A stretch of 64,000 nt of DNA from an uncultured Gemmatimonadales bacterium (GTDB lineage: Bacteria; Gemmatimonadota; Gemmatimonadetes; Gemmatimonadales; Gemmatimonadaceae): positions 64,001 to 128,000 of the forward strand of contig CAWBZV010000010.1 of assembly GCA_963793305.1 (NCBI GenBank), written 5' to 3'. The translations under genes were made by a program, and so were the position numbers. How positions within the stretch are numbered: position 1 is the stretch's first letter; each line of letters opens with the position of its first letter. Of the stretch, positions 3,247 to 63,015 are shown one piece after another. Under the pieces are notes generated by a model. That model made no database searches and was not told where the DNA came from. It worked only from the letters and a program-made list of their open reading frames with translations.

Positions 3247-3265
3247 CGTAGGGGAATCCCCGACG
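3247..3265. promoter_or_regulatory. 19-bp palindromic operator
   Basis: C-GTAGGG-GAATC-CCCGAC-G between divergent aldB and sulP. Confidence 0.6.
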
Positions 3266-3280
3266 GCCCCGAACCGGCTC

Positions 3281-4963
3281 GTGAGCGATCGTTCCCGCTT
3301 GACCTTCGCGCCGAAACTGCTGACCACGCTTCGGGGCTACACCCGTGCCCAGCTCATCGCCGATCTGGGCGCGGGTGTCATCGTCGGGATCGTGGCGTTG
3401 CCACTGGCCATCGCCTTCGCCATCGCCAGTGGCGTCACACCGGACCGCGGACTCTACACCGCCATCATCGCCGGCTTTCTGATCTCGGCCCTGGGCGGCT
3501 CGCGCGTTCAGATCGGCGGCCCGACCGGCGCCTTCGTCGTGATCGTCTATTCGATCGTCCAACGATACGGGATCGACGGCTTGACGGTCGCGACCATCAT
3601 GGCCGGGATCATCCTCATCGCGCTCGGACTGCTCAAGCTCGGGTCGACGATACGGTTCATCCCCTTCCCGATCATTACCGGGTTCACGAGCGGGATAGCA
3701 GTCATCATCTTCTCAGGTGAGATCAAGGATCTGCTGGGCCTCCGCATGGGCGACGTCCCCGCCCATTTCCTGGAAAAGTGGCTGGCCTATAGCCAACACC
3801 TGGCATCGATCAACCCGTACGCGATCGCCGTGTCCGCCGGAACGATCGCGATCCTGATCGGTTGGCCCGCGGTCAGCCGACGTATTCCGGGCCCGTTGGT
3901 AGCATTACTCGCCGCCACCGCCGTCGCGCAGATCTTCCATCTTCCCGTCGAAACGATCGGCAGTCGATTCGGCGCGATTCGGATGTCATTCCCTCCGCTC
4001 CGCATCCCCACGGTTACGATTCGCAGCTTCGCTGAGCTCGCGCAGCCCGCGATCGCGATCGCGCTCCTGGGTGGCATCGAGTCGCTGCTGTCGGCCGTCG
4101 TCGCCGATGGCATGATCGGCGGCCAGCACCGCCCCGATACCGAGCTCATCGCCCAGGGGATCGCCAACGTGGTCACGCCATTCTTCGGCGGCATCCCCGC
4201 GACGGGCGCCATCGCCCGAACGGCGACCAACGCGAAGAACGGCGGCCGGACACCCGTCGCGGGGATGACGCACGCGGTCACGCTGCTGCTCATCACGATC
4301 TTCGTCGGCAAGTGGGCCGCGCTCGTGCCGATGGCCTGTCTCGCCGGCATCCTCACGATCGTGTGCTACCATATGAGTGAGTGGCGTACGTTCCGCGCCG
4401 AGCTCCGATCGCCGAGGAGCGACGTGGCCGTGCTGCTCGTGACCTTCGGCCTCACGGTGGTCGTATCGCTGGTCGTCGCGATCGAAGTCGGCATGGTGCT
4501 GGCGGCCTTTCTCTTCATGCGACGGATGGCCGAGGTCGCGGGGGTGAACGTCGCGCCGCTGACGGATGAGACGCCTGACGCCGATGCGATGAACGTGGCG
4601 GCGGGTCGCGGTATCCAGATCTACGAGATCAACGGCCCGTTGTTCTTTGGCGCCGCGGCCGCGTTCAAGCAAACGCTCAGCGATATCGCCAAACGACCCA
4701 ACGTCATCATCCTTCGCATGGGCCGCGTCCCCGCGATCGATGCCACGGGCCTCCGCACGCTCGCCGATATCGTGCACCGCTTCCGACGCGATGGCACGCG
4801 CGTGATCCTGTCGGAGCTGCACGCGCAACCACGACAAGCCCTCGAGCGGTCGCCGGTCATGGACGACGTCGGAGAGGAGAATATCGCCGACTCCCAGACC
4901 ACGGCCGTCCAGCTGGCGCGAGAGCAGATCGCCGTTCAGCGCGTCGTCAGCGCCACCTCGTGA
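3281..4963 (+). CDS. SulP/SLC26 anion transporter with STAS domain
   Basis: [31 protein letters not shown]-terminal GPLFFG...IDATG STAS domain. Confidence 0.95.
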
Positions 4964-5166
4964 GCCATTTCCTTCGGCTCCCATATGGCGACATGCCGCA
5001 TATACCGCCGTTTCACGACCGCCCAGGCCAGGTGAGCCGCATCGCTCTCGGGCCCACCGTACTGCGATGCGGCGTGGTTGAACGTCTGGCGATAGAGATC
5101 CTGCGCTCCGGGCGGTAGGTGCCGGCGCACACCGAGTGGAAGCTCCTCATTCGTCGCATACGGCAT
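4936..5166 (-). CDS. chaB: ChaB-family protein
   Basis: MPYATNEELP.VR.HLP..AQDLYR.TFN.A and AWAVVKRRY signature. Confidence 0.85.
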   Translation of the reverse strand: MPYATNEELPLGVRRHLPPGAQDLYRQTFNHAASQYGGPESDAAHLAWAVVKRRYMRHVAIWEPKEMAHEVALTTR

Positions 5167-5213
5167 GGTTCCGTGCCTCCTCGCAGAATCGTATCAAGCA
5201 TCTGGCCGGGAGG

Positions 5214-5254
5214 TGTCACCGATTCCCCGACATGTTGTCGGCATCACCCTGACA
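5214..5254. promoter_or_regulatory. Two tandem 19-bp operators, 22-bp spacing
   Basis: T-GTCACC-GATTC-CCCGAC-A (5214) and T-GTCGGC-ATCAC-CCTGAC-A (5236) between divergent chaB and malic enzyme. Confidence 0.7.
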
Positions 5255-5276
5255 ATCGGCAGGTATATTCGATCCC

Positions 5277-8726: not shown

Positions 8727-8745
8727 CGTCAGGGATTCCCTTACG
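8727..8745. promoter_or_regulatory. 19-bp palindromic operator
   Basis: C-GTCAGG-GATTC-CCTTAC-G upstream of cytochrome c/cyc2, overlapping the oxidase stop codon. Confidence 0.6.
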
Positions 8746-9766
8746 CCGGCTTGACGATGAGGGCGGTCACCATGCCGAACATGCCCTGCTCCGACTCCGC
8801 GTGCGGCAGAATGTGGCAATGAAATGCCCACGTGCCGGGATTCGTGCAGTGCACGAGCACATCCCACCGCTCGCCGGGCGCGATGTTCAGCGTGTCGCAC
8901 TTCCACGGCGCGGGGTGCGTCCAGCCGTCTTTGGCGATCACGGTCATCGGCATCCCGTGAAGATGCATCGGATGGATCATCATCCCTTCGTTCATGTAGC
9001 GGATCCGGATTGTCTGACCCTGCTTTGCGACCAGCGGCTCCGTCGCGGGGAATCCCTTGCCGTTCAGCGTGAAGCCCCCGAGTCCATCGTTCAGGATCAT
9101 CACGTAGTCGAGATCGACCTTTGGCTCGCTCGACGCGTCCTTCGGCTCGACGATGAATGCGCCAAGGAGACCCTTCATGACCTGCGTGGTCGCGTTGTGG
9201 TGCGAGTGGTACATGTGCGACCCCGAGTGCGGGGCCGTAAACTCGTACGTGAACGACTGGCCCGGTTTGATCGGTGGCTGCGTGAGGAACGGCACGCCAT
9301 CCTGGTCGTTCGGCACCGAGAGGCCATGAAAGTGGATCGACGTTGACTGATCGAGCTCGTTCTTGAGATTGATCTTGACGCGATCGCCCTCGCGCACCCG
9401 GATCTGTGGGCCGGGGACCGTTCCGTTATACGCGAACGCCTCGACCTGCTGGCCCGGGGTAACCTCCCACTGGATCTTGGACGCCGTGATATCGAAGATC
9501 TTGACGCCGTTCTCGACGCGCGGCGCAAAGAGGACGTTGCCCTTCCCTTCGGTCTTCGCCGGAAAGGCTTTGACGCCCTTTTCGCACATCGCGTCCATCG
9601 CGTCGGCGGCTGCCGTCGGCGATGGAGGAGGTGGCGGCGGTGTCGTCGGAGTCGTCGCGGCGACGGCTTCCGCGGTTTTCGCGCGACACGCGGCGAGAAC
9701 GCCAACGGTCAGCGCCGCGGCTGCACCCTCGCGGAGAAACTGGCGGCGGTTCGTTGCATTGGACAT
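8741..9766 (-). CDS. Tat-exported two-domain multicopper oxidase (T1 Cu in domain 2)
   Basis: NRRQFL Tat motif; HFHG, YHSH, HPMHLHG, FHCHILPH...GM. Confidence 0.9.
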   Translation of the reverse strand: MSNATNRRQFLREGAAAALTVGVLAACRAKTAEAVAATTPTTPPPPPPSPTAAADAMDAMCEKGVKAFPAKTEGKGNVLFAPRVENGVKIFDITASKIQWEVTPGQQVEAFAYNGTVPGPQIRVREGDRVKINLKNELDQSTSIHFHGLSVPNDQDGVPFLTQPPIKPGQSFTYEFTAPHSGSHMYHSHHNATTQVMKGLLGAFIVEPKDASSEPKVDLDYVMILNDGLGGFTLNGKGFPATEPLVAKQGQTIRIRYMNEGMMIHPMHLHGMPMTVIAKDGWTHPAPWKCDTLNIAPGERWDVLVHCTNPGTWAFHCHILPHAESEQGMFGMVTALIVKPA

Positions 9767-9875: not shown

Positions 9876-9894
9876 TGCCGGGGATTCCCTTACA
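9876..9894. promoter_or_regulatory. 19-bp palindromic operator
   Basis: T-GCCGGG-GATTC-CCTTAC-A between the oxidase and a divergent membrane-protein gene. Confidence 0.6.
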
Positions 9895-9933: not shown

Positions 9934-10329
9934 ATGACCGCCGTCCGCGTCACCTTGACTCTCGCGCGCCTGAGCGGCGTCGCCGTGCTCCTACTTGGCG
10001 TCCTGTTCTGGGCCGGGCAGGCGCTCGCGTTCGTCACGCTGCACATGGCGCTCGGCGTGATCCTGGTCCTCGCGCTCTGGACGCTCGCTGGCCTTGCGTT
10101 TCGCGCCGGCGTGGACCGCGCGACGGTGGCCATAGCCGTCGCGTGGGGATTCGTTCTGCCGATCCTGGGCGTCGTGCAGCTGACACTACCGCCGGGCGGT
10201 GGATACGGCTTCGTGCGCGTCCTGCATCTCGTGGTTGGCCTGGGGGCGATCGCTCAGTCGGAATCGCTGGCGGGGCGCATCCGGAGATCTGGCGCTGGCG
10301 CCAGTCGCGGCTCGGCGCCGAGCCAGTAG
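9934..10329 (+). CDS. Hypothetical four-TM membrane protein
   Basis: Four hydrophobic segments with two membrane His residues (LHMALG, LHLVVG); GAGG before the ATG. Confidence 0.7.
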   Translation: MTAVRVTLTLARLSGVAVLLLGVLFWAGQALAFVTLHMALGVILVLALWTLAGLAFRAGVDRATVAIAVAWGFVLPILGVVQLTLPPGGGYGFVRVLHLVVGLGAIAQSESLAGRIRRSGAGASRGSAPSQ

Positions 10330-10775
10330 AGGCCATTCGCCATGATGCAGAACCCCGTCACCGCGAACCACACCATCGCGAGTCCGACGAACCCGGTGAA
10401 CGCCAACCACCAGGCGCTGTACACCATCGACAGCACCGAGGCAATCGAGATATTGATGCCGACGGCGAGATAGATACGACGCTCGAGATACCAGCGGTCG
10501 GTTTGCATCAGGTACCATTTCGACCCCGGCGCGGTCATCCCCAGCATTGGCGTGAAGCCCAGTCGCTTGAGGATGTTGCCGACGACGCAGAAGCCGGTCA
10601 GCGCGACCGTCACCGAGGCCGCTCCGGTCGCGATGATCAAGAAGGCCCACGTCGGATTGACGAGCGCCGACAGCGTCGTCGCCGTGAGCAGAACGATGCC
10701 GGCGATCAACCAGACCGTCCGCTCGATGTACCACCGGTTGGTGGGAACAATGTAGACGCCGGAACGGAACCTCAT
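10254..10775 (-). CDS. Tandem DUF2892 (YgaP-like) membrane protein
   Basis: Two internal repeats WY(I/L)ER...TGFC; ATGA-coupled to the hydrogenase protease. Confidence 0.75.
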   Translation of the reverse strand: MRFRSGVYIVPTNRWYIERTVWLIAGIVLLTATTLSALVNPTWAFLIIATGAASVTVALTGFCVVGNILKRLGFTPMLGMTAPGSKWYLMQTDRWYLERRIYLAVGINISIASVLSMVYSAWWLAFTGFVGLAMVWFAVTGFCIMANGLYWLGAEPRLAPAPDLRMRPASDSD

Positions 10776-11245
10776 GAAATGTCATGCCCCCATGCGATGA
10801 GTTGATGAACGACGGAGCGTATGAGACTCGGCAGACCGTCCTGTACGGCCGGGGAGAGACCAAGACCGACCGCCAGCCGGTCCGGCTGGAGCCCAAGCGC
10901 CCGCATCTCGGCCGGCCGGGTCCCTGTGAGATCGGCGAGCGCCAGCACATCACGCAGATCGATCTCGTGCGGCGACAACCGCATCGCGAAATGGCGCGGC
11001 AGATCATCACCGGCCAGTGTGATCGGATCACCGACGGGACGATTCGCGTCGATCGCGTCGACGAACAACACTCGCTTCGCCCCTTCGATCAGTGGCAACA
11101 ATCCAAGGCCGGCAGTGCCGCCGTCGACCAGTGACACGTCGGCCGGAAACGACCACTCCGCGCTCAACCGCGCGATCACCGCCGGTCCGAGCCCGTCATC
11201 ACCCATGAGCGGGTTCCCCAATCCCAGCACGAGCGTGTCACTCAT
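10772..11245 (-). CDS. hyaD: Hydrogenase maturation endopeptidase
   Basis: VLGLGNPLMGDDG.G, VDGGT, VDAI, SPHE. Confidence 0.92.
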   Translation of the reverse strand: MSDTLVLGLGNPLMGDDGLGPAVIARLSAEWSFPADVSLVDGGTAGLGLLPLIEGAKRVLFVDAIDANRPVGDPITLAGDDLPRHFAMRLSPHEIDLRDVLALADLTGTRPAEMRALGLQPDRLAVGLGLSPAVQDGLPSLIRSVVHQLIAWGHDIS

Positions 11246-11990
11246 CGACATACTCTTCCGAGGTCGACACGAACCGGCCGCCGCTGACAATGGACGTGAT
11301 CGTGCCCGAGCGCTCCATGATGTCGGATCGCGTCGCCAGATAGATGTGGATCGGGATGAAGAGGATGAAGAACCAGGTGAGCACGTGATGGACAACCCGC
11401 ACCATCTGGATGCCACCCAAGAGCGGAATTACCCAGGCGAAGGTCCGGAAGATCAGGCTTCCCGGCGCCGCCTGTCCGTACAGCGTGAATCCCGTGACGA
11501 TCATGACCAAGCCGACGACGTACACCAATGTGTAGGAGAACTGCTGCATCGGATTGTGGCCGAGGTAGTGCGGCCCTCGCTCCGGATGAATCATCAGGTA
11601 GTACTTGGTCATCCGAAAGAGATTGACCCAATCGCGCCCGCGCACCGGGAACAACGCCGCCAACCGCTCGAACTGGTTGCCGGCGAATAACCAATAGGCG
11701 CGTACGATCGCCGTCGCCACCAGCACACCGGCGGCGATGAAGTGGGCGAGGCGCACACCGCCCATGAGAAAGTGCGCGCTGGCTGGCCCGCTCGTCATGA
11801 AATACGGCCGGCCGATGTAGAACCCGGTGACGATCAGCACCACGATGCTGGCCGCCGCGCTCCAGTGCATGGCGCGAATCGGCCAGTGCCAGAGATAGAC
11901 CCACCGGTACTCGCCAGTTGGCGGCGGTATCGGGTGGGCGAGCGAGAAGTGCGCCTTGGCTCGCGTGCTCTTCTCCACGGGCGGAGTCAT
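11238..11990 (-). CDS. hyaC: [NiFe]-hydrogenase b-type cytochrome subunit
   Basis: WHWPIRAMHW, RLAHF, GHNPMQ, VHH...IHIY, ITSIVSG. Confidence 0.93.
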   Translation of the reverse strand: MTPPVEKSTRAKAHFSLAHPIPPPTGEYRWVYLWHWPIRAMHWSAAASIVVLIVTGFYIGRPYFMTSGPASAHFLMGGVRLAHFIAAGVLVATAIVRAYWLFAGNQFERLAALFPVRGRDWVNLFRMTKYYLMIHPERGPHYLGHNPMQQFSYTLVYVVGLVMIVTGFTLYGQAAPGSLIFRTFAWVIPLLGGIQMVRVVHHVLTWFFILFIPIHIYLATRSDIMERSGTITSIVSGGRFVSTSEEYVDE

Positions 11991-13702
11991 TGGACCGTTA
12001 CCCGCGTGATCAGCTCGCCCGTCGCGTCGAGCACATGGACCCCGCATGCCATGCACGGATCGAACGAGTGGATCGTGCGCAGGATCTCGAGCGGCTGATC
12101 GGGTTTCTGTAACGGATGATGATCGACGAGCGCCGCCTCGTACGGCCCCAACTGCCCTTGCGCATCCCGTGGGGAGCAATTCCAGGTGCTCGGCACCACG
12201 CACTGGTATCGCGAGATCTTGCCATCCTCGATCCGCACCCAGTGCCCGAGCGCGCCGCGCGGCGCGTCGAGATACCCGTACCCCTGTGACGTCTTGCTCC
12301 ACGTCGACGGCTCCCACTTCGCGCCGGCGAACGTCTGGTGATCGCCATTGGCGATCCGGCTCACGAGCGCCGCATACCAGACGCGCAACCGCCGGGCCAG
12401 GAGCAGCGTCTCCATCCCTCGCGCCGCGGTCCGGCCGAGCGTCGAGAACAGTGCCGGTGCACCGACTCCGAGTTTGCCAAGCGTCTCGTCGACCAGCGGC
12501 TTGACGTCGGCGTGGTTCGACGCGTAGGCCACGAGCATGCGGGCCAACGGCCCGACCTCCATCGCCTTGCCGTTGTACCGCGGCGCCTTCATCCACGTGT
12601 ACTTCTGCTCGTCCTGCAAGTAGCGCCAGGGCGGCTTCGGCCCCGTATAGTGCGGCGTCGTCTCGCCATCGTAGGGATGGAGCCCTTTCTCATTCCCGCC
12701 CGAGTAATCGTACCACGCGCTATGGATGTACTCGGCGATCCCGTGATGATCGTACGGCTCGACCTTGCTCAGGTCAGCGCCCATGATGATGCCGCGCGGG
12801 AAATAGAGCGTGTTGAGATCGCGCACGTCGCCATCGGGAAACTCACCCACGGCCATATAGTTGCGCGTCCCGCCGCCGATCGAGGCCCACTCTTTATAGA
12901 AGCCGGCAATCGCCACCAGATCGGGCCAGTAGACCTGCTCGACGAACCGCTGCGCGCGGTCGATCATGTCGCTGATCTCGATGAGCCGGGCCGCGTTGAT
13001 CATCCCCGCGCCATCCGGGTTGATCGCGGAGGCCATGCCGCCGACGAGAAAGTTCGGATGCGGGTTCTTGCCACCAAAGATCGTGTGCAAGCGAACGACG
13101 TCGCGCTGCCAATCGAGGGCCTCCAAATAGTGCGCGAGCGCGAGGAGGTTGACCTCCGGCGGGAGCTTGTACGCCGGGTGTCCCCAGTACCCATTGCTGA
13201 AGATCCCGAGCTGGCCGCCGGAGACGAACTTCTTGATCCGCGCCTGCACCTCGCCGAAATACGTCGGCGAATTATTGGGCCACGGGGAGATCGACGCCGC
13301 GATCTTCGCCGTTCCGGCCGGATTGGCCGATAGCGCGCTCACGACATCGACCCAATCCAACGCGTGCAAGTGATAGAAATGCATCACGTGATCGTGCACG
13401 AACTGCATGCCGACGACGAGATTCCGAATCAGGTTCGCGGCCGGCGGGATGCGGATGTCGAGCGCCTCCTCCACGGCGCGGCACGACGCGACCGCGTGCA
13501 CCACGGTGCAGACCCCGCAGATGCGCTGCGCGAACGCCCACGCGTCCCGCGGATCGCGCCCCTGGATCACGGTCTCGATGCCGCGAAACTGCGTCGACGA
13601 GGCCCATGCGTTGCTGATGCGCCCGTCCTCCGTCTGCACTTCGATGCGGAGGTGACCTTCGATCCGCGTCAGCGGGTCGACAACGACTTTAGTGACTGGC
13701 AT
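11987..13702 (-). CDS. hyaB: Group 1 [NiFe]-hydrogenase large subunit
   Basis: DPLTRIEGH, L1 motif QRICGVCTVVH, L2 motif SFDPCMACGVH, cleavable C-terminal tail. Confidence 0.97.
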   Translation of the reverse strand: MPVTKVVVDPLTRIEGHLRIEVQTEDGRISNAWASSTQFRGIETVIQGRDPRDAWAFAQRICGVCTVVHAVASCRAVEEALDIRIPPAANLIRNLVVGMQFVHDHVMHFYHLHALDWVDVVSALSANPAGTAKIAASISPWPNNSPTYFGEVQARIKKFVSGGQLGIFSNGYWGHPAYKLPPEVNLLALAHYLEALDWQRDVVRLHTIFGGKNPHPNFLVGGMASAINPDGAGMINAARLIEISDMIDRAQRFVEQVYWPDLVAIAGFYKEWASIGGGTRNYMAVGEFPDGDVRDLNTLYFPRGIIMGADLSKVEPYDHHGIAEYIHSAWYDYSGGNEKGLHPYDGETTPHYTGPKPPWRYLQDEQKYTWMKAPRYNGKAMEVGPLARMLVAYASNHADVKPLVDETLGKLGVGAPALFSTLGRTAARGMETLLLARRLRVWYAALVSRIANGDHQTFAGAKWEPSTWSKTSQGYGYLDAPRGALGHWVRIEDGKISRYQCVVPSTWNCSPRDAQGQLGPYEAALVDHHPLQKPDQPLEILRTIHSFDPCMACGVHVLDATGELITRVTVQ

Positions 13703-14819
13703 CGGGTTTTGTCTCCTCCGTCGCGCGCCGGCGCGTCTGAATCTGGTGAATGCCAGTCGCGGCGGCGTGCGCCGCGATGCCCGCGACCACGCCGATCGCG
13801 GCGGCGGCGCCGAACAGATCGGCCGTGCGCTCGACGCCGAACCCGGCGACGTTCGGCAAGCGGCCGTAGAACGGCGTCATCGTGTCCCAGAAATGCGGTT
13901 CGGTGCAACCGAGACAGGGATAGCCAGCGCCGATCGGCCAGCTGGTCCGCTCATTCCAGAGAAACGTCGGACACGGCGAGAACGTCGCCGGGCCCTTGCA
14001 GCCCACCTTGTACAAGCACCACCCCGCCTTCGCCGCGTCGTCATCAAATTGCTCCACAAACTGGCCCGCGTCGTAGTGCGCGCGACGTGGGCACGCGTCG
14101 TGGATCAACTCCCGGTACGCGAACAGTGGACGCCCCTCGCTGTCAGTATCCGGCAGCTTCCCAAATGTCAGGTAGTGCACGAGCGTCGCCGTCACGACAT
14201 CGCTGATCGGCGGGCAGCCGGCGATGTTCACGACCTGCCGATCCTTCAGGATATCACGAACGCCGACGGCGCCAGTCGGATTCGGGCGCGCGGCCTGTAC
14301 ACTGCCCCAGTGGGCGCACGCGCCAACAGCCACGATCGCCGCTGCGCCGGCCGCTGCCTCGACGAGGATATCCTGCACCGTGCGTCCCGCGATCGTCGTG
14401 TAGATCCCACCGTCTTTCGTCGGAATGGATCCGGTCACCAGCAGCACGTACTGACCGTGATTCGCTTGCATCGCGCTGTGCAACGCGCTCTCGGCCGCCT
14501 CGCCGGCGGCCGCCATCAGGTTCTCCTGAAAGTCGAGCGAGATGAGCCCGAGTATGAGGTCGCCGATCGTCGGGTCGGACGACCGCAGAACAGACTCGGT
14601 GCAGCCGGTGCATTCCTGCAACGACAGCCAGACGACGCTCGGCCGGCGCTGTGCTTCGAGCGCGGCGGCGACGCGCGGCAAGACCGTGGCGCCGAGCCCG
14701 AGCATCGCGGCCATCTGGCCGCAAAACTCGACAAACTCGCGGCGCGTGTAGCCCCGGCGCTCGAGATGGCCGCTGAGCGTCTCGCCCTCGACCCATGGTT
14801 CACGCGACGGATAGAGCAC
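13689..14819 (-). CDS. hyaA: Group 1 [NiFe]-hydrogenase small subunit
   Basis: Tat motif TRREFVEFC, ECTGCTES, GCPP, HDACPRR, CLYKVGCKGP, CLGC, C-terminal TM anchor. Confidence 0.96.
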   Translation of the reverse strand: MLYPSREPWVEGETLSGHLERRGYTRREFVEFCGQMAAMLGLGATVLPRVAAALEAQRRPSVVWLSLQECTGCTESVLRSSDPTIGDLILGLISLDFQENLMAAAGEAAESALHSAMQANHGQYVLLVTGSIPTKDGGIYTTIAGRTVQDILVEAAAGAAAIVAVGACAHWGSVQAARPNPTGAVGVRDILKDRQVVNIAGCPPISDVVTATLVHYLTFGKLPDTDSEGRPLFAYRELIHDACPRRAHYDAGQFVEQFDDDAAKAGWCLYKVGCKGPATFSPCPTFLWNERTSWPIGAGYPCLGCTEPHFWDTMTPFYGRLPNVAGFGVERTADLFGAAAAIGVVAGIAAHAAATGIHQIQTRRRATEETKPDASH

Positions 14820-15308: not shown

Positions 15309-16715
15309 TTAGGGAGCCACTCCGAACGGATCGCTGATGTGGCAGACGAGGCAGATGGAACGATTGCGTTCCCACATCCGGCGGGCGTCGAAGTTCGGGC
15401 CGTGCGGATTCACATGGCCGCCGATGTCCGAGTGGCACGCAACGCAATCGCGCTCCTGATGACAGCTCGTGCACGTCGCCAGATCGCGGCGCGCCGCCTG
15501 GCCATGCTGCAACAGCCAGAGCGGCTCCGCCGTGTGAAACGCGATGTTGCGATTGGCGCGCGAGGCGATCCCGACGTTCATGTGACACGTCCGGCAGAAC
15601 GACTCGGTGTTGTGACACTTAGCGCAGTCGATCTGCCGCGCGTACGAGTCCGCGGCATGATGGGCCATGAAGTTCGCCGGATGGAAGCCCCGGGTCGTGC
15701 GGCCGGCGTGGCACGAGACGCAGAAGACCTGTTGCTCGTGGCACCCGGCGCAGTTCATCTGACGGGTCGACGCCGCAGGCCCGTGTGACGTGACGAATCC
15801 CGACGGATGCACGCGCGAGACATACATGACACCCACGCCGGCCGGACCCGCACCGGTCGGCGCCGGCAGTCGCGCGATGACCGCCGGCGCTTCCCGGCCG
15901 GCGTGACACGACGCGCAACTCGGCCGCGTATGACAGTTCGCGCACTGGGCGATATTCGTGCGCGCGGCACTCCCGTGATCGTACGGCCACGACGCGGCCG
16001 TGTGACTCGGTGGCCGCGGGTACTCGGCGGGGCGGCCAGCCATAAGCCGCGCGACACGAGTATCCCGCGCCAGCGTCGCGATCGCCGGCACCGCGGCGCC
16101 ATTGAAATGGCATCGCTCGCAGCTCTCGCGCGCGTGGCACGTGGCGCACTGCGCCTGCTCGGCCGGCGACGTCGGCGCGTGCGCGAGGACAAAATCGTCC
16201 GCGCGGTGCGAGGCCGGCTTGTCGAACGCCGCGATCTGCCGCTCGGTGAGCGCGCTTGCTTCCGTCAATGGGACGTGACACGTCGCGCAAACGGCCTGCG
16301 GCGCCAGATGCTCGGCAACGCGATGCGCATGGCAATCGATGCACAGCGCCGGCTGCGCGCGCGCGACGTCCATCCACACGACCTGCCCGCGCTGCGCCGT
16401 GTGACACGACATGCAATCCAGCGAGTCGCCGGTACCACTGGTACGGCGGTAATGCTCCGCGTGGTCGAAGATCACATTCGTCGCGACGCGGCGAGGCCCG
16501 CTCCACGGCACCTCCTTGAGCTCGCGCCCAGTATGGCACCCTTGGCAGGACGCCGCTGTCGGGAAAAGCCTGGCACTGTCGCCGGACGCGATGCCGGCGT
16601 GACAGCCGAGGCAGGTTGGAAAGACCTTGGCGTGGCGGGCGTGCGGAAAGCCCTGGTCGTCCTGACGGAGCCCCCACGTCAACGCCAGCACGATGGCGGC
16701 GATCGTCCAGCGCAT
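15309..16715 (-). CDS. Exported 16-heme c-type cytochrome
   Basis: 16 CxxCH motifs counted by eye, many paired in the C-terminal half; N-terminal signal-like segment. Confidence 0.92.
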   Translation of the reverse strand: MRWTIAAIVLALTWGLRQDDQGFPHARHAKVFPTCLGCHAGIASGDSARLFPTAASCQGCHTGRELKEVPWSGPRRVATNVIFDHAEHYRRTSGTGDSLDCMSCHTAQRGQVVWMDVARAQPALCIDCHAHRVAEHLAPQAVCATCHVPLTEASALTERQIAAFDKPASHRADDFVLAHAPTSPAEQAQCATCHARESCERCHFNGAAVPAIATLARDTRVARLMAGRPAEYPRPPSHTAASWPYDHGSAARTNIAQCANCHTRPSCASCHAGREAPAVIARLPAPTGAGPAGVGVMYVSRVHPSGFVTSHGPAASTRQMNCAGCHEQQVFCVSCHAGRTTRGFHPANFMAHHAADSYARQIDCAKCHNTESFCRTCHMNVGIASRANRNIAFHTAEPLWLLQHGQAARRDLATCTSCHQERDCVACHSDIGGHVNPHGPNFDARRMWERNRSICLVCHISDPFGVAP

Positions 16716-19956: not shown

Positions 19957-19958
19957 GT

Positions 19959-21478: not shown

Positions 21479-21497
21479 AGCCGGGGATTCCCTGACA
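21479..21497. promoter_or_regulatory. 19-bp palindromic operator
   Basis: A-GCCGGG-GATTC-CCTGAC-A upstream of the multiheme operon. Confidence 0.65.
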
Positions 21498-22614: not shown

Positions 22615-22947
22615 TCACTTCGAGGAGAGTCCACGGACGTACTTCGCGAGGGTTGCCATCTGACTCGACGTGAGCTTGCCTTTGAACGGTGGCATGTCTC
22701 CGCCCTTTCCTCCCGTGAGCACTTTCACGATCGAGTCGTCCGTGCGCACCGCGATGAACGCGGAGTCGAACGTCGGGATCTTGTTGAGCGCCGACTTGAC
22801 GTTCTTCGGCGGGAGCCCGCGGACGCCGTGACATTGCATGCAGTTCTGGTCGTACAAAGCTTTGGCATCGTCCTGCAGACCGTGCACACGAACTGATGCA
22901 AGCGATGCCAGCAGCGTGAGGGAAAAACCTACGACCCGGATGATCAT
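22615..22947 (-). CDS. Monoheme class I cytochrome c
   Basis: Signal peptide, YDQNCMQCHG, GDMPPF. Confidence 0.9.
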   Translation of the reverse strand: MIIRVVGFSLTLLASLASVRVHGLQDDAKALYDQNCMQCHGVRGLPPKNVKSALNKIPTFDSAFIAVRTDDSIVKVLTGGKGGDMPPFKGKLTSSQMATLAKYVRGLSSK

Positions 22948-25905: not shown

Positions 25906-27937
25906 CTATGTACGGGAAACGCTGACAGCGGATGCCGACTCGAGCACGGTCTGATATCCGCTCTTCGCCCGAGACCGCTCCGCTTGCGGCCACATGACGA
26001 TCAACCCGCCGATGGCCATGGTGAGCCCGCCATACCATACCCACCAGACCAGTGGATTGAACGTGATGCGGATTTCGGCGGTATCCTCGTTGATCGCGCC
26101 GGCGAGCACCACGTAGAACGTCCTGAGCCAGGCCTTCCTGGATGCCGACCGCGGTCGACGGCTCGAACGTCCCGTTGCCGCGGCTATCGAAGTGCTGCCG
26201 CTTCTCGCTCTCGATGAGCGGCATGCGCTGGCCATCGCGGGTCGGCTTGAGCGTCACGGCAACCACATGGCGGTTGAGCTGGTCGAACAGTGACACGCCT
26301 TCGCTCACGAAGCGCCAGTGATGTCCGTATGGGTCGGTCGTTTCGAAGCTCTCGCCAGTGTGCAGCGTCACGTCGTTCTCGCGCTTGAACGCGAGACCGG
26401 CGAACGCGCAGAACAGAATGACCACGCCCGCGTGTACGATGTACCCGCCGTAGCGCCGACGATTCCGGCCGACGAGGCGCACGAATGCCACGGGCGCCGA
26501 TTCGCCGTGCATACGCCGGCGTGCCCCGACTCCCTTGTAGAATTCCTGCGCTATCGTCCCAGCGACGAACCCCGCCAGCGCATAAGCCACGACTGCGTGC
26601 CACTCGCGCATGCCCGCTGCCACCAGCAGCACACCGGTCGAAACGCCAGTGAACGTGGGCAGAACGAACTGCCGCTTGAGATTCGCGACCGACGCCCGGC
26701 GCCAGGCGATCAGCGGACCGATTCCCGTGAGCAATAGCAACAACAGGCCGAGCGGGATGTTGACCGCGTTAAAAAATGGCGGGCCGACCGTGATCTTCGA
26801 GCCGCGCACCGCCTCGCTCAGGATCGGGAAGAGCGTGCCCCACAGCACCGAGAACGCGATCCCGACCAGCAACAAATTGTTGTAGAGAAATGCCGCTTCC
26901 CGGCTGACCATGCTCTCCAGCTCGGCCTTGGCCTCCAAGTCCTTGAGACGAGTCGCCACCAGGTAGGCCGTGACCGCGACGCAAGCAACCAGCATCCCCG
27001 CGAACCAGTTGCCGACCGGTGACTGTGCGAACGAGTGGACGCTCGAGATCACGCCGCTGCGCGTGATGAACGTGCCGAGAATCGCGAGCAAGAACGTCGA
27101 CACCACCAGCACGACGTTCCATTTGCGGAGCATGCCCCGCTTCTCCTGGACCATGATCGAGTGCAAGAACGCGGTGCCCGTGAGCCACGGGAGCAGCGAT
27201 GCGTTCTCGACGGGATCCCACGCCCAATATCCACCCCAGCCGAGCTCGACGTAGGCCCACCACATGCCGAGCGTGATGCCGACCGTGAGAAAGAACCATG
27301 AGACGAGCGACCACCGGCGCACGGCGCTGAGCCACTCGGCGTCGAGCCGGCGCGTAATCAGCGCGGCGATCGCGAAGGCGAACGGGATCGCGGTCGCGAC
27401 GTAGCCGAGGTACAGGTTCGGTGGGTGAATCGCCATACCGGGATTCTGGAGCTGGGGATTGAGCCCGTTGCCGTCGGCCGGCATCCAGTCGAGGTGGTCG
27501 TACGGATTCGCGCCAAAACACATCGTCGCCAGAAAGAACAGCGTAATGGCCGACAGGGTGCCCGCGACATACGGCATGAGCACCTGATTGCGGCCACGAT
27601 TCGTCCACAGCGCGACGGCCGAATACGCGCTCAGAATCAAGCACCAGAAGAGCATCGAGCCGGCTTGCCCTGCCCAGAACGCGGTCAGCGTATACACGAA
27701 CGGCAAGTTGGCACTCGTGTACTCGGCCACGAACTTGAGCGAGAAGTCGTGGGTGATGAGCGCGGTCCAAAGTCCGAGTGACGCCAGCGCAACGAACCCG
27801 CACGTGGCATAGATCCCCCGTGCGCCGCTCTCGACCAGGTTGCGCCAATGGAGCGCGCCGCCGGCGAACGAGACGACCGTGGACCAGGTGGCGACGACGA
27901 GCGCCAACCAGAGGGACAACTCCCCGATGAGTATCAC
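25906..27937 (-). CDS. ccmF: Cytochrome c heme lyase CcmF; frameshift near 26117
   Basis: FWAGQAGS, IHPP.LY.GY, WAYVELGWGGYWAWDPVENAS, SVHSF; corrected C-terminus QDVYVVL...NPLVWWVW. Confidence 0.93.
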
Positions 27938-28413: not shown

Positions 28414-28432
28414 TGTCAGGGGTTCGCTGACA
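28414..28432. promoter_or_regulatory. 19-bp palindromic operator
   Basis: T-GTCAGG-GGTTC-GCTGAC-A between divergent ccmE and the PNPOx-like gene. Confidence 0.75.
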
Positions 28433-30065: not shown

Positions 30066-30084
30066 TGTCGGGCCTTCCCCTACG
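30066..30084. promoter_or_regulatory. 19-bp palindromic operator
   Basis: T-GTCGGG-CCTTC-CCCTAC-G upstream of the BON pair, overlapping the regulator stop codon. Confidence 0.6.
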
Positions 30085-30742
30085 TCGCCGTGAGTAACCC
30101 GAGCTTGAGGGCAAAGCGGACGTAATCCGCCCAATGCGCGAGGCCGAGCTTCTCGTGCACGCGTTGCTTGTACGTGTCGACGGTCTTCGCGCTGATCGAG
30201 AGCTTCTCTCCGATCTCGGGCGCCGTATAGCCTTCCGCGGTGAGACGCAACACGTCCCGCTCGCGATCGCTCAACGATTCGTAGCGGTCGCGATCGACCT
30301 TCGCCGGATCCTTTCGCGTGAGCCCCTGCGCGAGCACCCGGGCGGCTGCTTGGCGGACGTAGAGGTCACCGTTCGCCACCCCACGGATCGCATCGATCAG
30401 CTCGCGATCCGCGGATGTCTTGACGACATAACCAGCCGCGCCAGCCTGCAGGATGGGGACGAGGTACTCCTCCTCGGTGTGCATCGTGAGGATGAGCACG
30501 CGCGGGCGCGGACCCTTCGCGACGATCTCCTTCGTCACCTGGAGCCCATCGCCATCTGGCATGTCGAGGTCGAGCACAATGACGTCCGGATCGCAGCGCT
30601 GGGCCATGGCGATCGCCTGAGCTCCTGTGGACGCCTCGCCGACGACGGCCATGTCCTTGGCCGTGGCCAGCACCGCCTTTACGCCCGCACGGACCACGGC
30701 ATGGTCGTCCGCCAATAGCACTCGGATCGTATCGCCCAACAT
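30080..30742 (-). CDS. NarL/LuxR-family response regulator
   Basis: REC domain (LADDH, LDLDMP, LTMH, GYVVK) plus LuxR HTH LSDRERDVLRL...ISAKTVDTY...KLGL. Confidence 0.95.
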   Translation of the reverse strand: MLGDTIRVLLADDHAVVRAGVKAVLATAKDMAVVGEASTGAQAIAMAQRCDPDVIVLDLDMPDGDGLQVTKEIVAKGPRPRVLILTMHTEEEYLVPILQAGAAGYVVKTSADRELIDAIRGVANGDLYVRQAAARVLAQGLTRKDPAKVDRDRYESLSDRERDVLRLTAEGYTAPEIGEKLSISAKTVDTYKQRVHEKLGLAHWADYVRFALKLGLLTAT

Positions 30743-30793: not shown

Positions 30794-30812
30794 TGTCAGG
30801 TTCTCCCTGACA
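30794..30812. promoter_or_regulatory. Perfect 19-bp palindromic operator
   Basis: TGTCAGG-TTCTC-CCTGACA upstream of the response regulator and the divergent USP-kinase genes. Confidence 0.8.
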
Positions 30813-31705: not shown

Positions 31706-34106
31706 GTGGCGATTCAACCCTCGCTGCTCATCACAGCATTTGAACAGGCGCCCGTCGCGATGCTCGTGCTGGATCCGGACGGATCCGTACAGGTCGCGAA
31801 CCCGCTGGCGCGCGAGTACCTCGCGGTCGAGCTCGCCGACGTGGGATCCGAGGCAGCTGCCTGGTGGCGCCGCGCCGTTCAACGGGCTGCGGAAGGATGC
31901 GTGGAAGTCAGCCAGGTCCAGGGATCAACCGGAGATCGCATTGTCGAATGGGTCATTCGACCTGTTCTGGACGCTGCCCGGAACCTCCTCGGTCTCACCG
32001 CCGAAGGTCAGGAGGTGACGGAAAGGCGGCGACTGGAGCACGAGGCACAGTTGCTCCTGCGGTTGGCGCTCGCCATTGGTCACACGGATTCGCTCGAGCT
32101 CGCGATCGCCGCGGCACTCCGGACCATTTGCGAGGCATCAGGGTGGGCCATGGGGGAGGCCTGGCTCCCTGATGGCGAGGGCGAGGCGACGCGTCTCGTA
32201 CGCGGCGGCCTGTGGACGGCACGAGATGCCAAGATCGAGTCGTTCGCCGCTCAAGGAACGGGCATCAGTTTCACGCGAGGAGATGGTCTCCCGGGTCAAG
32301 CGTGGGTGCGCGCCCAGCCAATGTGGGAACGCCCATTGAGCGCCGCGCGGACGTTCACCCGGGCGCCGCTCGCCGCCGCCGCCGGACTCAGGGCCGCGGT
32401 CGCAATCCCCGTGCTGTCGGGAGATGATGTGGTCGCCGTGCTCAGCTTTTATATGACGGATGCGCGGACCGACGATGCACGGCTGGCGCGCATCACGACC
32501 GCGGTCGCGACGCAACTCGGTCCGCTGATCATCCAGAAACGCGCCGAGGAAACACACCGGTTGGCGGAAGCGAAGCTCGGCGGCATCGTGTCGATCGCGC
32601 GTCGACGCGATCATCTCGATCGACGAGAACCGGCGCATCACGCTCTTCAACTGGGGTGCGGAGCAGATCTTCGGATACGCCGCGGACGAGGCACTCGGGC
32701 AGTCACTCGACATGCTGCTGCCACCCGCCGCCCGCGAGCGCCACGCGTCGCACATCGCGCAGTTCGCGACGTCATCACAAACCGCGCGCCGGATGGGCGA
32801 GCGGTCGCCGATCAACGGACAGCGGAAATCAGGCGAGATCTTTCCCTGCGAGGCGTCGATCTCGCGGTTCCGGGCCGGCGGACGCTGGACGTTCACGGTC
32901 ACGTTGCGCGACATCACGGACCGGCGGCGGACAGAGGAGGGCCTGCGCTTCCTCTCCGAAGCGGGCGCTCTCCTGAGCGACCTCATTCGAGACCCCGGAG
33001 CCCTCGAGCGCGTAGCGCAACGAGCCGTCCCGACGCTCGGCGATGTGTGCGTGATCGATCTCGCCGATGACGCGAGCATTACCACCGTCGCGGTCGCCGC
33101 GACCGATCCGGGTCGGGCCGACGCGATGCGAGCGGAACGCGAACGCGCGCCGCTCACGCGGGGCTCGGATGATCCCGTGATCGACGCGTTGCGCGACGGC
33201 GCCACGCGCCTGGTGCAGGATCATGGCGTGTTCGGCTCGCTGCTCGTCGTCCCACTTGTCGCCCAACAGCGAACGCTCGGCGCCATGAGCTTCGCGATGC
33301 TGCGTGGCGGACGGCGGCATGACCCGTCCTACATCGCACTCGCCGAGCAGCTCGCGGCCCGCGTCGCATTGGCGGTCGATGCCGCTGCGTTGTATCAGCG
33401 CACCCGCCAAGCCGTTGGCGCTCGCGATGAAGTCCTGGCTGTCGTCTCGCACGATCTCCGGAACCCCCTCAGCGCGATCAACATGTGCGTCAGCGCCCTG
33501 CGCGAATCCCAGGCCGATCCGGAGACGACGCGCGAGCTGCTGGGCACCGTCCGTGACTCGGCGACGCTCATGTCACGGATCATTCAAGACTTGCTGGATG
33601 TCGCCAGCATCGACGCCGGCAAGTTGTCGATCGAGCGGCGGCTGCAGCCCATTGCGCCCGTGCTCGGTCACGCGACGGCGATGTTCGAGGCCATAGCGGC
33701 CGAGAATCAGATCACGCTGCGCGAGGACGAGGAGCCGTCGCTCCCCAATGTCGTGATCGATGCCGAACGCGTGCTCCAAGTGCTGGCCAACCTGCTGCAC
33801 AACGCTTGCAAGTTCACGCCGGCCGGCGGCACCGTCCGCGTGCGCGCCGTCACGGTCGCGGACGCGGTCCAGATCTCCGTCTCGGACACGGGGCCCGGGA
33901 TCCCGCACGAGGATCTGCCCCGCGTGTTCGATCGATTCTGGCACGCCCGGCGCGCGGCCAAAATCCGGTCGACGGGCCTCGGACTGGCCATCGCCCGAGG
34001 CATCGTCGAAGCCCACGGCGGCCGGATCTGGGTCGAGAGCAGACCCGGCCAGGGCAGCACCTTCACGTTCACGCTCCCGACCAGCGCGGCGCCCGTTACG
34101 GCGTGA
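31706..34106 (+). CDS. PAS-GAF-PAS-GAF sensor histidine kinase; frameshift near 32600
   Basis: GDGLPG GAF, FNWGAEQIFGY PAS, VSHDLRNPL H-box, NLLHNACKF, DTGPGI, GLGLAI. Confidence 0.9.
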
Positions 34107-37823: not shown

Positions 37824-37864
37824 AGCCGGGGGACACCTGACAAAGCGCACGGGAAACGCCGACT
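37824..37864. promoter_or_regulatory. Two tandem 19-bp operators, 22-bp spacing
   Basis: A-GCCGGG-GGACA-CCTGAC-A (37824) and C-GCACGG-GAAAC-GCCGAC-T (37846). Confidence 0.6.
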
Positions 37865-39410: not shown

Positions 39411-39473
39411 TGTCAGGGGCCCTAAGCGAATGCGTAGGGGATACTCGGACGCAAACGTGGCAACCCCCTGACG
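39411..39473. promoter_or_regulatory. Three tandem degenerate operators, 22-bp spacing
   Basis: T-GTCAGG-GGCCC-TAAGCG-A (39411), C-GTAGGG-GATAC-TCGGAC-G (39433), A-CGTGGC-AACCC-CCTGAC-G (39455). Confidence 0.6.
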
Positions 39474-41156: not shown

Positions 41157-41197
41157 AGCCGGCGATCCCCCGACACGACGTGCGGCAATACCCGACG
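41157..41197. promoter_or_regulatory. Two tandem 19-bp operators, 22-bp spacing
   Basis: A-GCCGGC-GATCC-CCCGAC-A (41157) and C-GTGCGG-CAATA-CCCGAC-G (41179). Confidence 0.6.
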
Positions 41198-41728: not shown

Positions 41729-42143
41729 GCGAGCGCTGACGCTGGCCGCACTCGTGATCGGTTGTGGCCACGCGTATACGCCGAGAACGCGCGAGTTCAC
41801 GATCACGACCGTGCCGCTGCTTGTCACAGAGCTCGCGCCGACTTACCCGTTTCTGGCCAAGGACTTCGCGAAAGGCGGCGTCCTCGACGGGAAGGAAGTG
41901 TACGCGTTCGAGCCGAGCACGCTCACGGTCTACGCAGGCGACACGCTGGCGCTGACGTTCATCAACCCCGAGGACGACGCGCACTCGTTCGTCCTGAGCG
42001 ATTTTGCCCTGAGCTTGCCGGGCCAATCGGTTACCCATGCGACCTACGTTGCGAAAGAGCCGGGGCTGTACCCGTTTCGGTGCGCGATTCCGTCGCACCT
42101 GCCGTCGATGGTTGGCGAACTCGTCGTGCTCTCCGTCCGGTAA
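41724..42143 (+). CDS. Cupredoxin-domain lipoprotein (start codon uncertain)
   Basis: VIG/C lipobox-like, AFEPSTLTV..GD, DAHSF, FRCAIPSHLPSM. Confidence 0.75.
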   Translation, partial: VRRALTLAALVIGCGHAYTPRTREFTITTVPLLVTELAPTYPFLAKDFAKGGVLDGKEVYAFEPSTLTVYAGDTLALTFINPEDDAHSFVLSDFALSLPGQSVTHATYVAKEPGLYPFRCAIPSHLPSMVGELVVLSVR

Positions 42144-42243
42144 TCCCTCACAGAATTCAAGGCTTCGCCCGACTCTAGCTCCTCGTCGCGTCGCGCACCT
42201 TGCAGTCGACGCTCGATCAATCCCTTCTGACGAGGATATCGCG

Positions 42244-50816: not shown

Positions 50817-50835
50817 TGTCAGGGGATCACTGACA
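50817..50835. promoter_or_regulatory. 19-bp palindromic operator
   Basis: T-GTCAGG-GGATC-ACTGAC-A between the divergent lipoprotein/USP genes and macAB-like genes. Confidence 0.75.
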
Positions 50836-56385: not shown

Positions 56386-56404
56386 TGTCAGGCATTGCCC
56401 GACA
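56386..56404. promoter_or_regulatory. 19-bp palindromic operator
   Basis: T-GTCAGG-CATTG-CCCGAC-A between the divergent transpeptidase and DUF4389 genes. Confidence 0.7.
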
Positions 56405-60560: not shown

Positions 60561-60602
60561 TGTCGGCTAAGGGCCTGACAGCGCGTCGGGGACTTGCTGA
60601 CA
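60561..60602. promoter_or_regulatory. Two tandem operators
   Basis: TGTCGGC-TAAGGG-CCTGACA (60561, six-base spacer) and C-GTCGGG-GACTT-GCTGAC-A (60584); right arms are 22 bp apart. Confidence 0.65.
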
Positions 60603-60824: not shown

Positions 60825-60914
60825 CCCTCTCCCCCATGCATCCCGGCACGCCGGGTACCAGAATGGGTTGCAGCATAGGGCGAAGCAGGATCAGGATCCC
60901 GCGACCGGCTTGCG

Positions 60915-61678: not shown

Positions 61679-61730
61679 AATGCACTCCGATCAGGTTGTA
61701 TTGAGCCTACCGCGGGCGGTCGGGGACGAC

Positions 61731-61771
61731 TATCGGGTAGTCGGCGACAGCGTGTGAGGCATCACCTGACA
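61731..61771. promoter_or_regulatory. Two tandem 19-bp operators, 22-bp spacing
   Basis: T-ATCGGG-TAGTC-GGCGAC-A (61731) and T-GTGAGG-CATCA-CCTGAC-A (61753). Confidence 0.65.
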
Positions 61772-61804
61772 CCGCCCAACCCCGAGGTTTATACGCTACG
61801 AAGC

Positions 61805-62287
61805 ATGAAGACACTCATCGTTTATTACTCACGTTCCGGGCACACGCGCCGCGTGGCCGTCGCGCTCGCTGCATCGCTACAAGCGGACCTGGAAGAGATC
61901 ACGGAACCGCGTGGTCGTCAGGGGATCTTCGGGTACCTTCGCTCGGCGAGGGAAGCGATCAAGCGCATTCCGGTGCGCATTACACCGACGCGCGATCCGG
62001 CGCTGTACGACCTCGTCGTGATCGGCACGCCCGTGTGGGCGGCATCCCTGTCCTCCCCCGTGCGGGCCTACCTGATCGCCAATCGCGATCGCTTGGGCGA
62101 CATGGCGTTCTTCTGCACGATGGGCGGACGCGGCAGCGCAAACGTGTTCGCGCAGATGCAGAAGCTGACGCGCAGGCCGCCGCGCGACACGATCGCTGTC
62201 ACGGATCGCGAGATCACCTCTGGCGTGTGTTGGGCGCGCCTCGAAGCCTTCGCGGCGACGATCGCGCCGTTCGTGCCCACAACCTGA
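61805..62287 (+). CDS. Flavodoxin-family protein
   Basis: YYSRSGHT, YDLVVIGTPVWA, AFFCTMGG. Confidence 0.9.
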   Translation: MKTLIVYYSRSGHTRRVAVALAASLQADLEEITEPRGRQGIFGYLRSAREAIKRIPVRITPTRDPALYDLVVIGTPVWAASLSSPVRAYLIANRDRLGDMAFFCTMGGRGSANVFAQMQKLTRRPPRDTIAVTDREITSGVCWARLEAFAATIAPFVPTT

Positions 62288-62308
62288 GACCTTCACCGTA
62301 TCCTCACG

Positions 62309-62575
62309 ATGTCACGACTGCTCGCTTTCATCATGATCGCGGGCTGCTGGGCCACCAGCGCTGCGCAGGTTCCCACGCCACCCGATGCCAATGATCCGCC
62401 AGGCCGGGTCGGACGCTTGTCGTTCATCGAAGGCGCGGTGTCCTTCCGGCCGGCCGCCGGGGACACGTGGGCGATACCACAGCCGAACCGAGCGGTTACG
62501 ACCGGCGATGAGCTGTGGGTGGATGTGTCCAGCGTCGAGACCGTGCCGGGCGTGCTGTCGGTGAAGTGCGGGTAG
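62309..62575 (+). pseudogene. Truncated N-terminus of a secreted FecR-like/DUF6600-type protein
   Basis: Signal peptide plus DPPGRVGRLSFIEG.VSF.PA...W....NR.VTTGD.LW, followed by an early stop. Confidence 0.6.
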
Positions 62576-62637
62576 ATAATGGCGGCTTCGGTCTCGTTGC
62601 TGCCCGCGACACAGAGAACCGGACCCGCGCTCGCGTC

Positions 62638-63015
62638 ATGCCACGTGAGTTGTCGACCGGGGCGGCGGACGATCTCGTACGGGCAACGGAGCTCGCGCGC
62701 GAGATGGTCATGCGCTACGGCATGGACGCGACCGTTGGCAACGCGGTCTATCGCGACGGGTCGATTGCGCCGGAATCGCGACTGTACAGCGAGCAGACGG
62801 CGCGCGATATCGAGTCCGCCGTCCGGGGCTTGCTGCAAGGGGCGCTCGATCGCGCCATTGCGATTTTGACGCTCAACCGGACTGCGCTCGACGACGGCGC
62901 GAAGCGCTTGCTCGACCGCGAGACGCTGACGCGCGACCAACTGCCGTCCGTCACGCCGGCGCCGGAGGAAGAGGCCCCCCGCGTCAGTGTCAGCGTCAGG
63001 GAACCCCTGACATAG
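62638..63015 (+). pseudogene. ftsH: C-terminal fragment of an FtsH (peptidase M41) gene
   Basis: STGAADDL.RAT.LAR.MV.RYGM...YSEQTA..I...LLDRETL; no AAA domain and no HExxH upstream. Confidence 0.75.
62994..63012. promoter_or_regulatory. 19-bp palindromic operator
   Basis: C-GTCAGG-GAACC-CCTGAC-A upstream of nirK. Confidence 0.75.

Follow-up and report, generated by a model that had tools for sequence, protein, structure and literature searches.

A 19-bp palindromic box tied to a NarL-family regulator marks a predicted low-oxygen regulon in Gemmatimonadaceae

The DNA analyzed here, called the window, is a stretch of 64,000 nucleotides (contig CAWBZV010000010.1, positions 64,001 to 128,000, assembly GCA_963793305.1) from an uncultured Gemmatimonadales bacterium of the family Gemmatimonadaceae. 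It carries a gene island encoding universal stress proteins (USPs), BON proteins, Hsp20, PfkA, PpsA, pyruvate kinase, HemG and SulP, together with CcmEF, a Rieske-cytochrome b, three multiheme cytochromes, a two-domain multicopper oxidase, and the copper nitrite reductase NirK. Among these genes lie a response regulator of the NarL/FixJ family and a multidomain sensor kinase, and a 19-bp palindrome, referred to below as the box, recurs in front of genes across the island (Table 1). A sequence-only reading of the window had listed 23 positions of this motif as TGTCAGG-N5-CCTGACA and had proposed that the regulator controls the stress genes, nirK, ccmEF, and the electron-transfer island. The analysis supports the box and its link to the regulator and points to a regulon that probably responds to low oxygen.

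All 23 listed positions were checked by reading, and the motif was present at each. Of the checks proposed along with the motif, those on its frequency came out in its favor. With up to two mismatches allowed, the 17-bp core occurs 19 times in the window, versus 3.3 ± 1.9 times in shuffled sequence (0 of 100 shuffles reached 19), and the 5-bp spacer alone is enriched, with 14 island matches versus 0 to 2 for spacers of 2 to 4 and 6 to 9 bp. To avoid circularity, a matrix was learned from relatives' DNA only. A palindrome-only motif search of 219 intergenic regions (45.9 kb) around the regulators of relatives, with window DNA kept out, returned the box as tGTCGGGGaatCCCCGACa, with a best width of 19. 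The working consensus, taken from 90 sites in the target promoters of relatives, is YGTMRGGGAWTCCCYKACR; its spacer reads GGA-W-TCC and is therefore not free. The boxes are concentrated in the window: at a score of ≥14, its 8.1 kb of intergenic DNA holds 13 sites, versus 6 in 777 kb of intergenic sequence elsewhere in the genome, islands excluded.

Scored with the relatives-only matrix, 17 of the 23 listed sites are clear, each at a level expected at most 0.6 times per 64 kb. The site at 41179 is borderline, and those at 37846 and 61731 count as weak secondary boxes set in a 22-bp register, while the sites at 39411, 39455, and 60561 (the last with a 6-bp spacer) score at noise level and could not be upheld. 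The same matrix identified four extra sites, at 16557 (within a gene), 22915, 25909, and 42134. The copy at 30794 had been singled out as the sole perfect one; it is indeed the only perfect 19-mer of the TGTCAGG-N5-CCTGACA pattern, but the spacer is not free, and other sites outscore it. The absence of a site at the hydrogenase operon, also noted previously, was borne out, with a best score there of -2.9.

Boxes were found in 17 of the 25 gaps of the window that bear a gene start, and three of the eight box-less gaps are artifacts of one-base assembly errors. Further boxes extend as far as C10:135 kb, and contig C23 has them too; this contig is a rearranged version of the island together with stretches of C3. 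As the longest matches of C23 to C10 and C3 are 83 to 88% identical and rearranged, it was not accepted as a second island in its own right and is probably a co-binned relative or chimeric. Its sites were for this reason left out as independent targets; unrelated-looking genes (erpA-like and ppx-like) occupy one of its ends. When both island copies were counted, the box was present in 16 of 25 divergent gaps, 11 of 39 tandem gaps, and none of 11 convergent gaps. A search of literature listings with the motif strings, from which most subscription journals were absent, yielded no description of the box. The box is judged to be a real, family-wide operator.

Second boxes were found at +22 and +23 from strong ones in 42 and 19 of 174 flank slots, respectively, versus approximately 3.5 expected. 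Of 126 site-gene pairs (homologous promoters are among them, and they do not count as independent), 31 have a -10-like YANNNT element starting at +20/21 past the box, versus 3.9 expected and at most 11 in 2,000 random draws. In 15 of the 22 pairs having a second box this element shifts to +42 to +44; the site at 25909, for example, has a second weak box at +22/23 and a -10-like element at +42 to +44. The -10-like element peaks at +21, +43, and +66 in the target promoters of relatives (n = 90), where the weaker boxes are those nearer the gene. Deduced from these elements, the center of the proximal box would lie near -43 and overlap the -35 region, hence in the position of an activator.

The regulator has its closest named relatives in Gemmatimonadota. 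Orthologs were identified in 164 of 200 family genomes and form a single clade (support, 96/83), in which all 43 ortholog rows retain both the helix KTV[DE]TY[KR] and the phospho-Asp; among its best 25 NCBIfam matches, the regulator reached no named-family cutoff. The box lies 51 to 105 bp upstream of the orthologs in G003, G005, G015, and G022 and in other genomes ahead of the operon. Overall, a box was found near 24 of 38 ortholog loci, which hold 50 sites in 568 kb versus 2.2 in shuffles, but near only 1 of 22 other NarL-type loci. Counts of the exact pattern per genome, with matches in 35 of 201 genomes, were too insensitive for an analysis of co-occurrence with the regulator. The conservation of the box near orthologs supports the link between box and regulator and is better evidence than the perfect copy on which the sequence-only reading had leaned. 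The regulator is thus the candidate binder and very probably recognizes the box, and its autoregulation through the box at 30794 is likely. Tandem regulator pairs with a box between them occur at L073, L074, L078, and L082.

An exact-match scan of metagenomes returned at least 119 stretches, 80 of which were examined. The box stood directly beside a response-regulator/LuxR-HTH gene in 13 of the 80 (one protein is common to two of these loci, and two of the matches are partial) and lay within 3 kb of a regulator gene at six further loci, against a background of about 3e-4. Of the box-adjoining metagenome regulators, 13 of 14 have the helix K[TS][VIA][ED]T[YH][KR]. At L120, L127, L130, L143, L177, and L185, the same exact box adjoins a NarL clade outside the gemmatimonad group, one member of which precedes a 4Fe-4S dicluster gene. 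Four other loci (L142, L157, L182, and L187) show the order NarL regulator, exact box, rpoN, an arrangement like that of the Xanthomonadales flagellar FsnR locus; the box there could be the site of this regulator. The available portions of two FsnR papers (PMC11404848 and PMC9600515) state no motif. At L151, L164, and L175, the exact palindrome lies 43 to 152 bp upstream of transposase-like HTH_33 genes.

To identify targets in relatives, genomes were scanned with a matrix trained on the window alone (score of ≥13, at most 450 bp upstream of the gene), using the best-scoring 29 to 30 loci from 76 (nirK), 43 (ccoNO), 74 (nosZ), and 58 (multiheme cytochrome) matching genomes. The box stands ahead of nirK in 23 of 29 relatives and of the fused ccoNO gene of the cbb3 oxidase in 24 of 30. 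It also precedes clade II nosZ in 12 of 30 relatives and the multiheme cytochrome in 11 of 29, rising to 19 of 30 and 18 of 29, respectively, at a score of 10. Control promoters carried it rarely (recA, 0/30; coxB, 2/30; hyaA, 0/11; non-island genes of the source genome, 13/2,542). When the unpublished genomes G012, G164, and G257 were left out, the counts became 22/27 for nirK, 11/28 for the multiheme cytochrome, 0/28 for recA, and 2/29 for coxB; these three genomes are also included in some other tallies, among them the ortholog count in family genomes, and no claim hinges on them. FNR boxes with up to one mismatch were found at 0/29 nirK, 0/30 ccoNO, and 2/30 nosZ promoters. The earlier assignment of nirK to the regulon is thus upheld both by the box in the window and by its conservation. 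For the electron-transfer island, the assignment holds for the multiheme cytochrome operon, and ccmEF is a candidate member on the strength of its site in this genome. Plasmid 1 of Gemmatirosa kalamazoonensis (NZ_CP007129.1) carries, on one strand, a HisKA_3 kinase, the regulator, a box, a gene, a box, two genes, rrf2, and the nosZ cluster, with no box directly ahead of rrf2-nosZ. Rrf2 genes were present in 6 of 30 nosZ loci, and Rrf2 may co-regulate nosZ.

The best solved relatives of the second PAS domain of the kinase are the heme domains of FixL (E value, 2.4e-19) and DosP. All 23 rows that cover the position have its proximal His. Of 21 long loci, 17 have the kinase close to the regulator, and the source genome encodes no other PAS domain of this type. 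The reading frame is split by an extra base at 32599 that is absent from contigs of two related sequencing runs (X1 and X2) and from uninterrupted homologs; X1 may come from the source sample, X2 belongs to the same study, and a third run (X3) did not show this absence. The frameshift is most likely an assembly error, and a pseudogene was rejected. Many relatives have in the regulator operon (11 of 21 long loci) a HAMP-HisKA_3 kinase without a recognized sensor domain, an ortholog of which was not found in the source genome. The phospho-His of this kinase is missing in 5 of 31 rows; at L009, L015, L018, L083, and L085, where it adjoins the regulator, it has lost this residue and is possibly a pseudokinase or phosphatase. 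The PAS kinase is favored as the phosphodonor because of its kept His, its proximity to the regulator, and the lack of a HAMP-HisKA_3 ortholog here, which favors the pairing and does not prove it. A low-oxygen input through a predicted heme of the PAS domain is likely.

Taken together, these data suggest that a FixL-like sensor runs a DosR-like regulon for low oxygen whose targets are elsewhere held by FNR, a mechanism to which, as a whole, we assign a probability of roughly three in four. Falling oxygen would be sensed by the predicted PAS-bound heme of the kinase, which would phosphorylate the neighboring regulator. The phosphorylated regulator would then bind the box and activate promoters from about -43, a strong distal box presumably loading the weaker proximal boxes cooperatively, and the box between the regulator and kinase genes could provide positive feedback on both. 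The predicted output here is a DosR/lxa-like persistence set (USPs, BON proteins, Hsp20, pfkA, ppsA, pyruvate kinase, hemG, and SulP) with NirK and electron-transfer genes. In relatives it would include respiratory targets that are under FNR-type factors in Proteobacteria.

A number of observations weigh against this mechanism. No box was found at a score of ≥15 at 14 of the 38 ortholog loci, several of which are short, and of 19 control regulators, 6 have a similar recognition helix but no strong box in their vicinity. In G318 and G230 (assemblies 96% complete in 330 contigs and 95% complete in 30 contigs, respectively), a box was identified at nirK or nosZ and no regulator ortholog was found, and G185 has the regulator and no box at ccoNO; G253 has neither the regulator nor a ccoNO box, as predicted. 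The target loci in relatives were the best-scoring ones, the relatives are not independent samples, and nosZ and the cbb3 oxidase were not found in the source genome, which is 92% complete. Lastly, the neighboring kinase is of the HisKA type, whereas many relatives add the operonic HAMP-HisKA_3 kinase. HisKA_3 is the usual partner kinase type of NarL regulators, and this, like the shared operons, counts for a variant in which the same regulator answers to nitric oxide (NO), carbon monoxide (CO), or membrane redox state, via heme or the HAMP-HisKA_3 kinase. The targets include the NO-producing NirK and nosZ, and DosR is inducible by NO and CO besides hypoxia (PMC3721108, available in part). Such an input nevertheless appears unlikely given the missing ortholog in the source genome, the loss of the phospho-His in some rows, the heme-ligand His retained by the PAS kinase, and the presence of the cbb3 oxidase and hemG, classic low-oxygen targets.

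The box-bearing relatives without a detectable regulator could also be explained if another factor, of the CRP/FNR or Rrf2 family or a paralog, bound the box and the regulator were merely a target. A CRP-family gene lies at the end of the island, and Rrf2 genes accompany some nosZ clusters, as noted above. However, the box lacks CRP/FNR geometry and none is near the CRP gene start, Rrf2 genes are absent from the nirK, ccoNO, and multiheme loci, and the exact box stands beside NarL-type regulators on unrelated metagenome contigs far over background. Moreover, the FixJ site TAAGTAATTTCCCTTA (PMC4999443, available in part) is similar to the right half of the box, and we consider a different binder improbable. 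The palindrome might instead be a repetitive extragenic palindrome (REP)-like repeat, a terminator, or the end of a mobile element, with no role in promoters, as some copies start with GTAG, a feature of REP units, and in 3 of the 80 metagenome matches the palindrome precedes a transposase-like gene. REP-like repeats would be expected behind stop codons and in convergent gaps, yet none of the 11 convergent gaps has a box, and the fixed distance to the -10-like element, the conservation upstream of specific orthologs across genera, and the lack of an Rfam match in the window likewise speak for a promoter element. This explanation is already contradicted and is given next to no weight.

The predicted regulon shares features with several known systems. 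Like DosR/DevR-DosST of Mycobacterium tuberculosis, it combines a NarL-family regulator with tandem palindromes, strong primary and weak secondary. DosS and DosT are heme-GAF HisKA_3 sensor kinases, a type not matched by the neighboring HisKA kinase with its FixL-like PAS domain, and DevR was only the third-best solved-structure match of the regulator (E value, 4.9e-34). The tandem boxes of DevR lie at -42.5 and -63.5 and are loaded cooperatively (PMC3177182), and DosR targets include USPs, alpha-crystallin, phosphofructokinase, a nitroreductase, and a sulfate transporter (PMC3177182 and PMC3721108, both available in part). Positioned from the -10-like elements, the boxes here are likewise tandem and phased with the proximal one near -42.5, and in relatives the DosR-type targets are extended to nirK, the cbb3 oxidase, and nosZ. 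The Dev box, however, is 18 bp long with GGGACT halves and a spacing of 21 bp (PMC3177182), whereas the gemmatimonad box is 19 bp long, is spaced by 22 to 23 bp, and lacks the GGGACT half-site in its consensus. FixL-FixJ of rhizobia and Caulobacter pairs a heme-PAS HisKA kinase with a LuxR-HTH regulator, and the kinase here has, by sequence, a PAS domain with the proximal heme His on a HisKA kinase. The FixJ site and the gemmatimonad box share a TCCCTTA half (PMC4999443), but the former is even in length (16 to 18 bp) and one base wider between the TAAG and CTTA arms, while the latter is odd. The regulator scored 75.5 bits against the FixJ family NF006900, below the cutoff of 255. FixJ has few direct targets and acts through FixK, whereas here the respiratory and stress genes have boxes directly at their promoters, and the target promoters of relatives almost lack FNR/FixK boxes (0 to 2 of about 30).

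The lxa locus of Burkholderia cenocepacia is a comparable island of USP, Hsp20, SulP, phosphofructokinase, and nitroreductase genes with one motif at many intergenic points. Its motif, TGA-N6-TCA, is FNR-like (PMC3721108) and unrelated to the gemmatimonad box, and the candidate regulator here is a two-component NarL protein. FNR, Anr, and Dnr control cbb3 oxidase and denitrification genes, which are among the box-bearing genes of relatives, yet the FNR/Anr/FixK/lxa site TTGAT-N4-ATCAA is not the one found at the nirK, ccoNO, nosZ, and multiheme promoters of these relatives. Staphylococcal NreC is another oxygen regulator of the NarL family and also has a short palindromic site; that site, TAGGGA-N4-TCCCTA, is one base wider than the gemmatimonad box, and the NreC sensor is an iron-sulfur PAS kinase. 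With its receiver, phospho-Asp, and GerE HTH, the regulator itself belongs to the NarL/FixJ family. The predicted system is thus DosR-like in promoter design and stress targets, FixL-like in its presumed sensing, and FNR-like in its respiratory targets, and it falls outside the DosR, FixLJ, and FNR classes, differing from each in a feature that was compared (the sequence of the box, the type of kinase, orthology to FixJ, or the presence of FNR sites).

The features of the window are listed in Table 1. NirK scored 168 bits against TIGR02376, under the cutoff of 296. The gene at 8741 to 9766 was rejected as NirK, as it encodes a Tat-type two-domain multicopper oxidase with the type 1 site in domain 2; in relatives it often shares an operon with the regulator. 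The operon at 15309 to 21417 encodes cytochromes with 8, 17, and 16 hemes and, among them, a 479-amino-acid protein without a Pfam match; its first gene has homologs in 58 of 200 family genomes, and it is possibly an extracellular electron conduit. A membrane-bound NiFe hydrogenase operon (10254 to 14819), with a divergent gene for a 142-amino-acid protein across a 58-bp gap, lies inside the island and outside the regulon; it was rejected as a target on its score and on the 0 of 11 relatives with a box at a score of ≥13. One-base assembly errors were identified at 28527, 32599, 42369, 42930, and 45179, where contigs from public runs differ, and they split the genes for the pyridoxamine-oxidase-like protein, the kinase, one USP, and PpsA. 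One peat run yielded RNA contigs near-identical to several island genes, which carry no expression information.

Table 1. Boxes and selected genes of the window
Feature	Position	Strand	Context
Box	3247..3265		Between aldehyde dehydrogenase and SulP
Two boxes, 22 bp apart	5214..5254		Between ChaB and malic enzyme
Box	8727..8745		Upstream of cytochrome c and next secreted protein
Box	9876..9894		Upstream of Tat-type two-domain multicopper oxidase 8741-9766
Strong-scoring site	16557..16575		Within 16-heme cytochrome gene
Box	21479..21497		Upstream of multiheme cytochrome operon (8, 17, 16 CXXCH motifs)
Additional weaker box	22915..22933		Upstream of small cytochrome c
Additional box	25909..25927		ccmF 3' end, upstream of cupredoxin-Rieske-cytochrome b
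Box	28414..28432		Between ccmEF and pyridoxamine-oxidase-like gene
Box	30066..30084		At regulator's stop, upstream of two BON genes
NarL/FixJ-family response regulator	30080..30742	-	Receiver and GerE HTH (Pfam); phospho-Asp; recognition helix KTVDTYK
Box	30794..30812		Between regulator and divergent USP-kinase genes; -10-like TATTCT 21 bp towards regulator
PAS-GAF-PAS-GAF-HisKA-HATPase kinase	31706..34106	+	Second PAS (32601-32960) FixL-like, proximal His; split by extra base 32599
Primary and weak secondary box	37824..37864		Between hemG-pyruvate kinase-USP and Hsp20
Box	39433..39451		Between USP and BON-USP
Two boxes, 22 bp apart	41157..41197		Upstream of BON gene
Additional box	42134..42152		Upstream of USP-USP-ppsA-pfkA-PRT-EreA run
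Box	50817..50835		Between DUF4136-USP and MacAB
Box	56386..56404		Between L,D-transpeptidase and DUF4389
Box	60584..60602		Upstream of USP genes
Weak secondary and primary box	61731..61771		Between BON and flavodoxin
Box	62994..63012		Upstream of nirK
Copper nitrite reductase NirK	63068..64000	+	Type 1 H/C/H/M, type 2 His, and catalytic Asp/His present; continues past window end

Gemmatimonadetes make up 4.7 to 8.9% of 16S reads in four agricultural soils, gemmatimonad nosZ mRNA follows rates of nitrous oxide (N2O) reduction in soil (R2, 0.91), and Gemmatimonas aurantiaca requires partly oxic conditions to begin N2O reduction (PMC9530729, available in part). A search of literature listings on gemmatimonad regulons, FixL, or nosZ regulation, which left out most subscription journals, found no account of how these genes are switched. 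We lean slightly towards a broader reading, in which a heme-PAS kinase and a NarL activator form the master low-oxygen switch of Gemmatimonadaceae, taking on the roles of both FNR and DosR over the cbb3 oxidase, NirK, clade II NosZ, multiheme conduits, and a dormancy set, with the box shared by a wider NarL subfamily in other phyla. The matrix allows the low-oxygen regulon to be predicted from any gemmatimonad genome, and with regulator, sensor, and operator named, the proposal is testable in a cultured strain, as plasmid 1 of G. kalamazoonensis carries the regulator, boxes, and nos cluster. If true, the broader reading would explain why N2O reduction in Gemmatimonas starts only at the passage from oxic to anoxic conditions, and the proposed mechanism would place abundant N2O consumers under low-oxygen control without FNR boxes. 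It would also represent a third architecture of bacterial hypoxia regulon, with FixL-type sensing, DosR-type promoters, and FNR-type targets.

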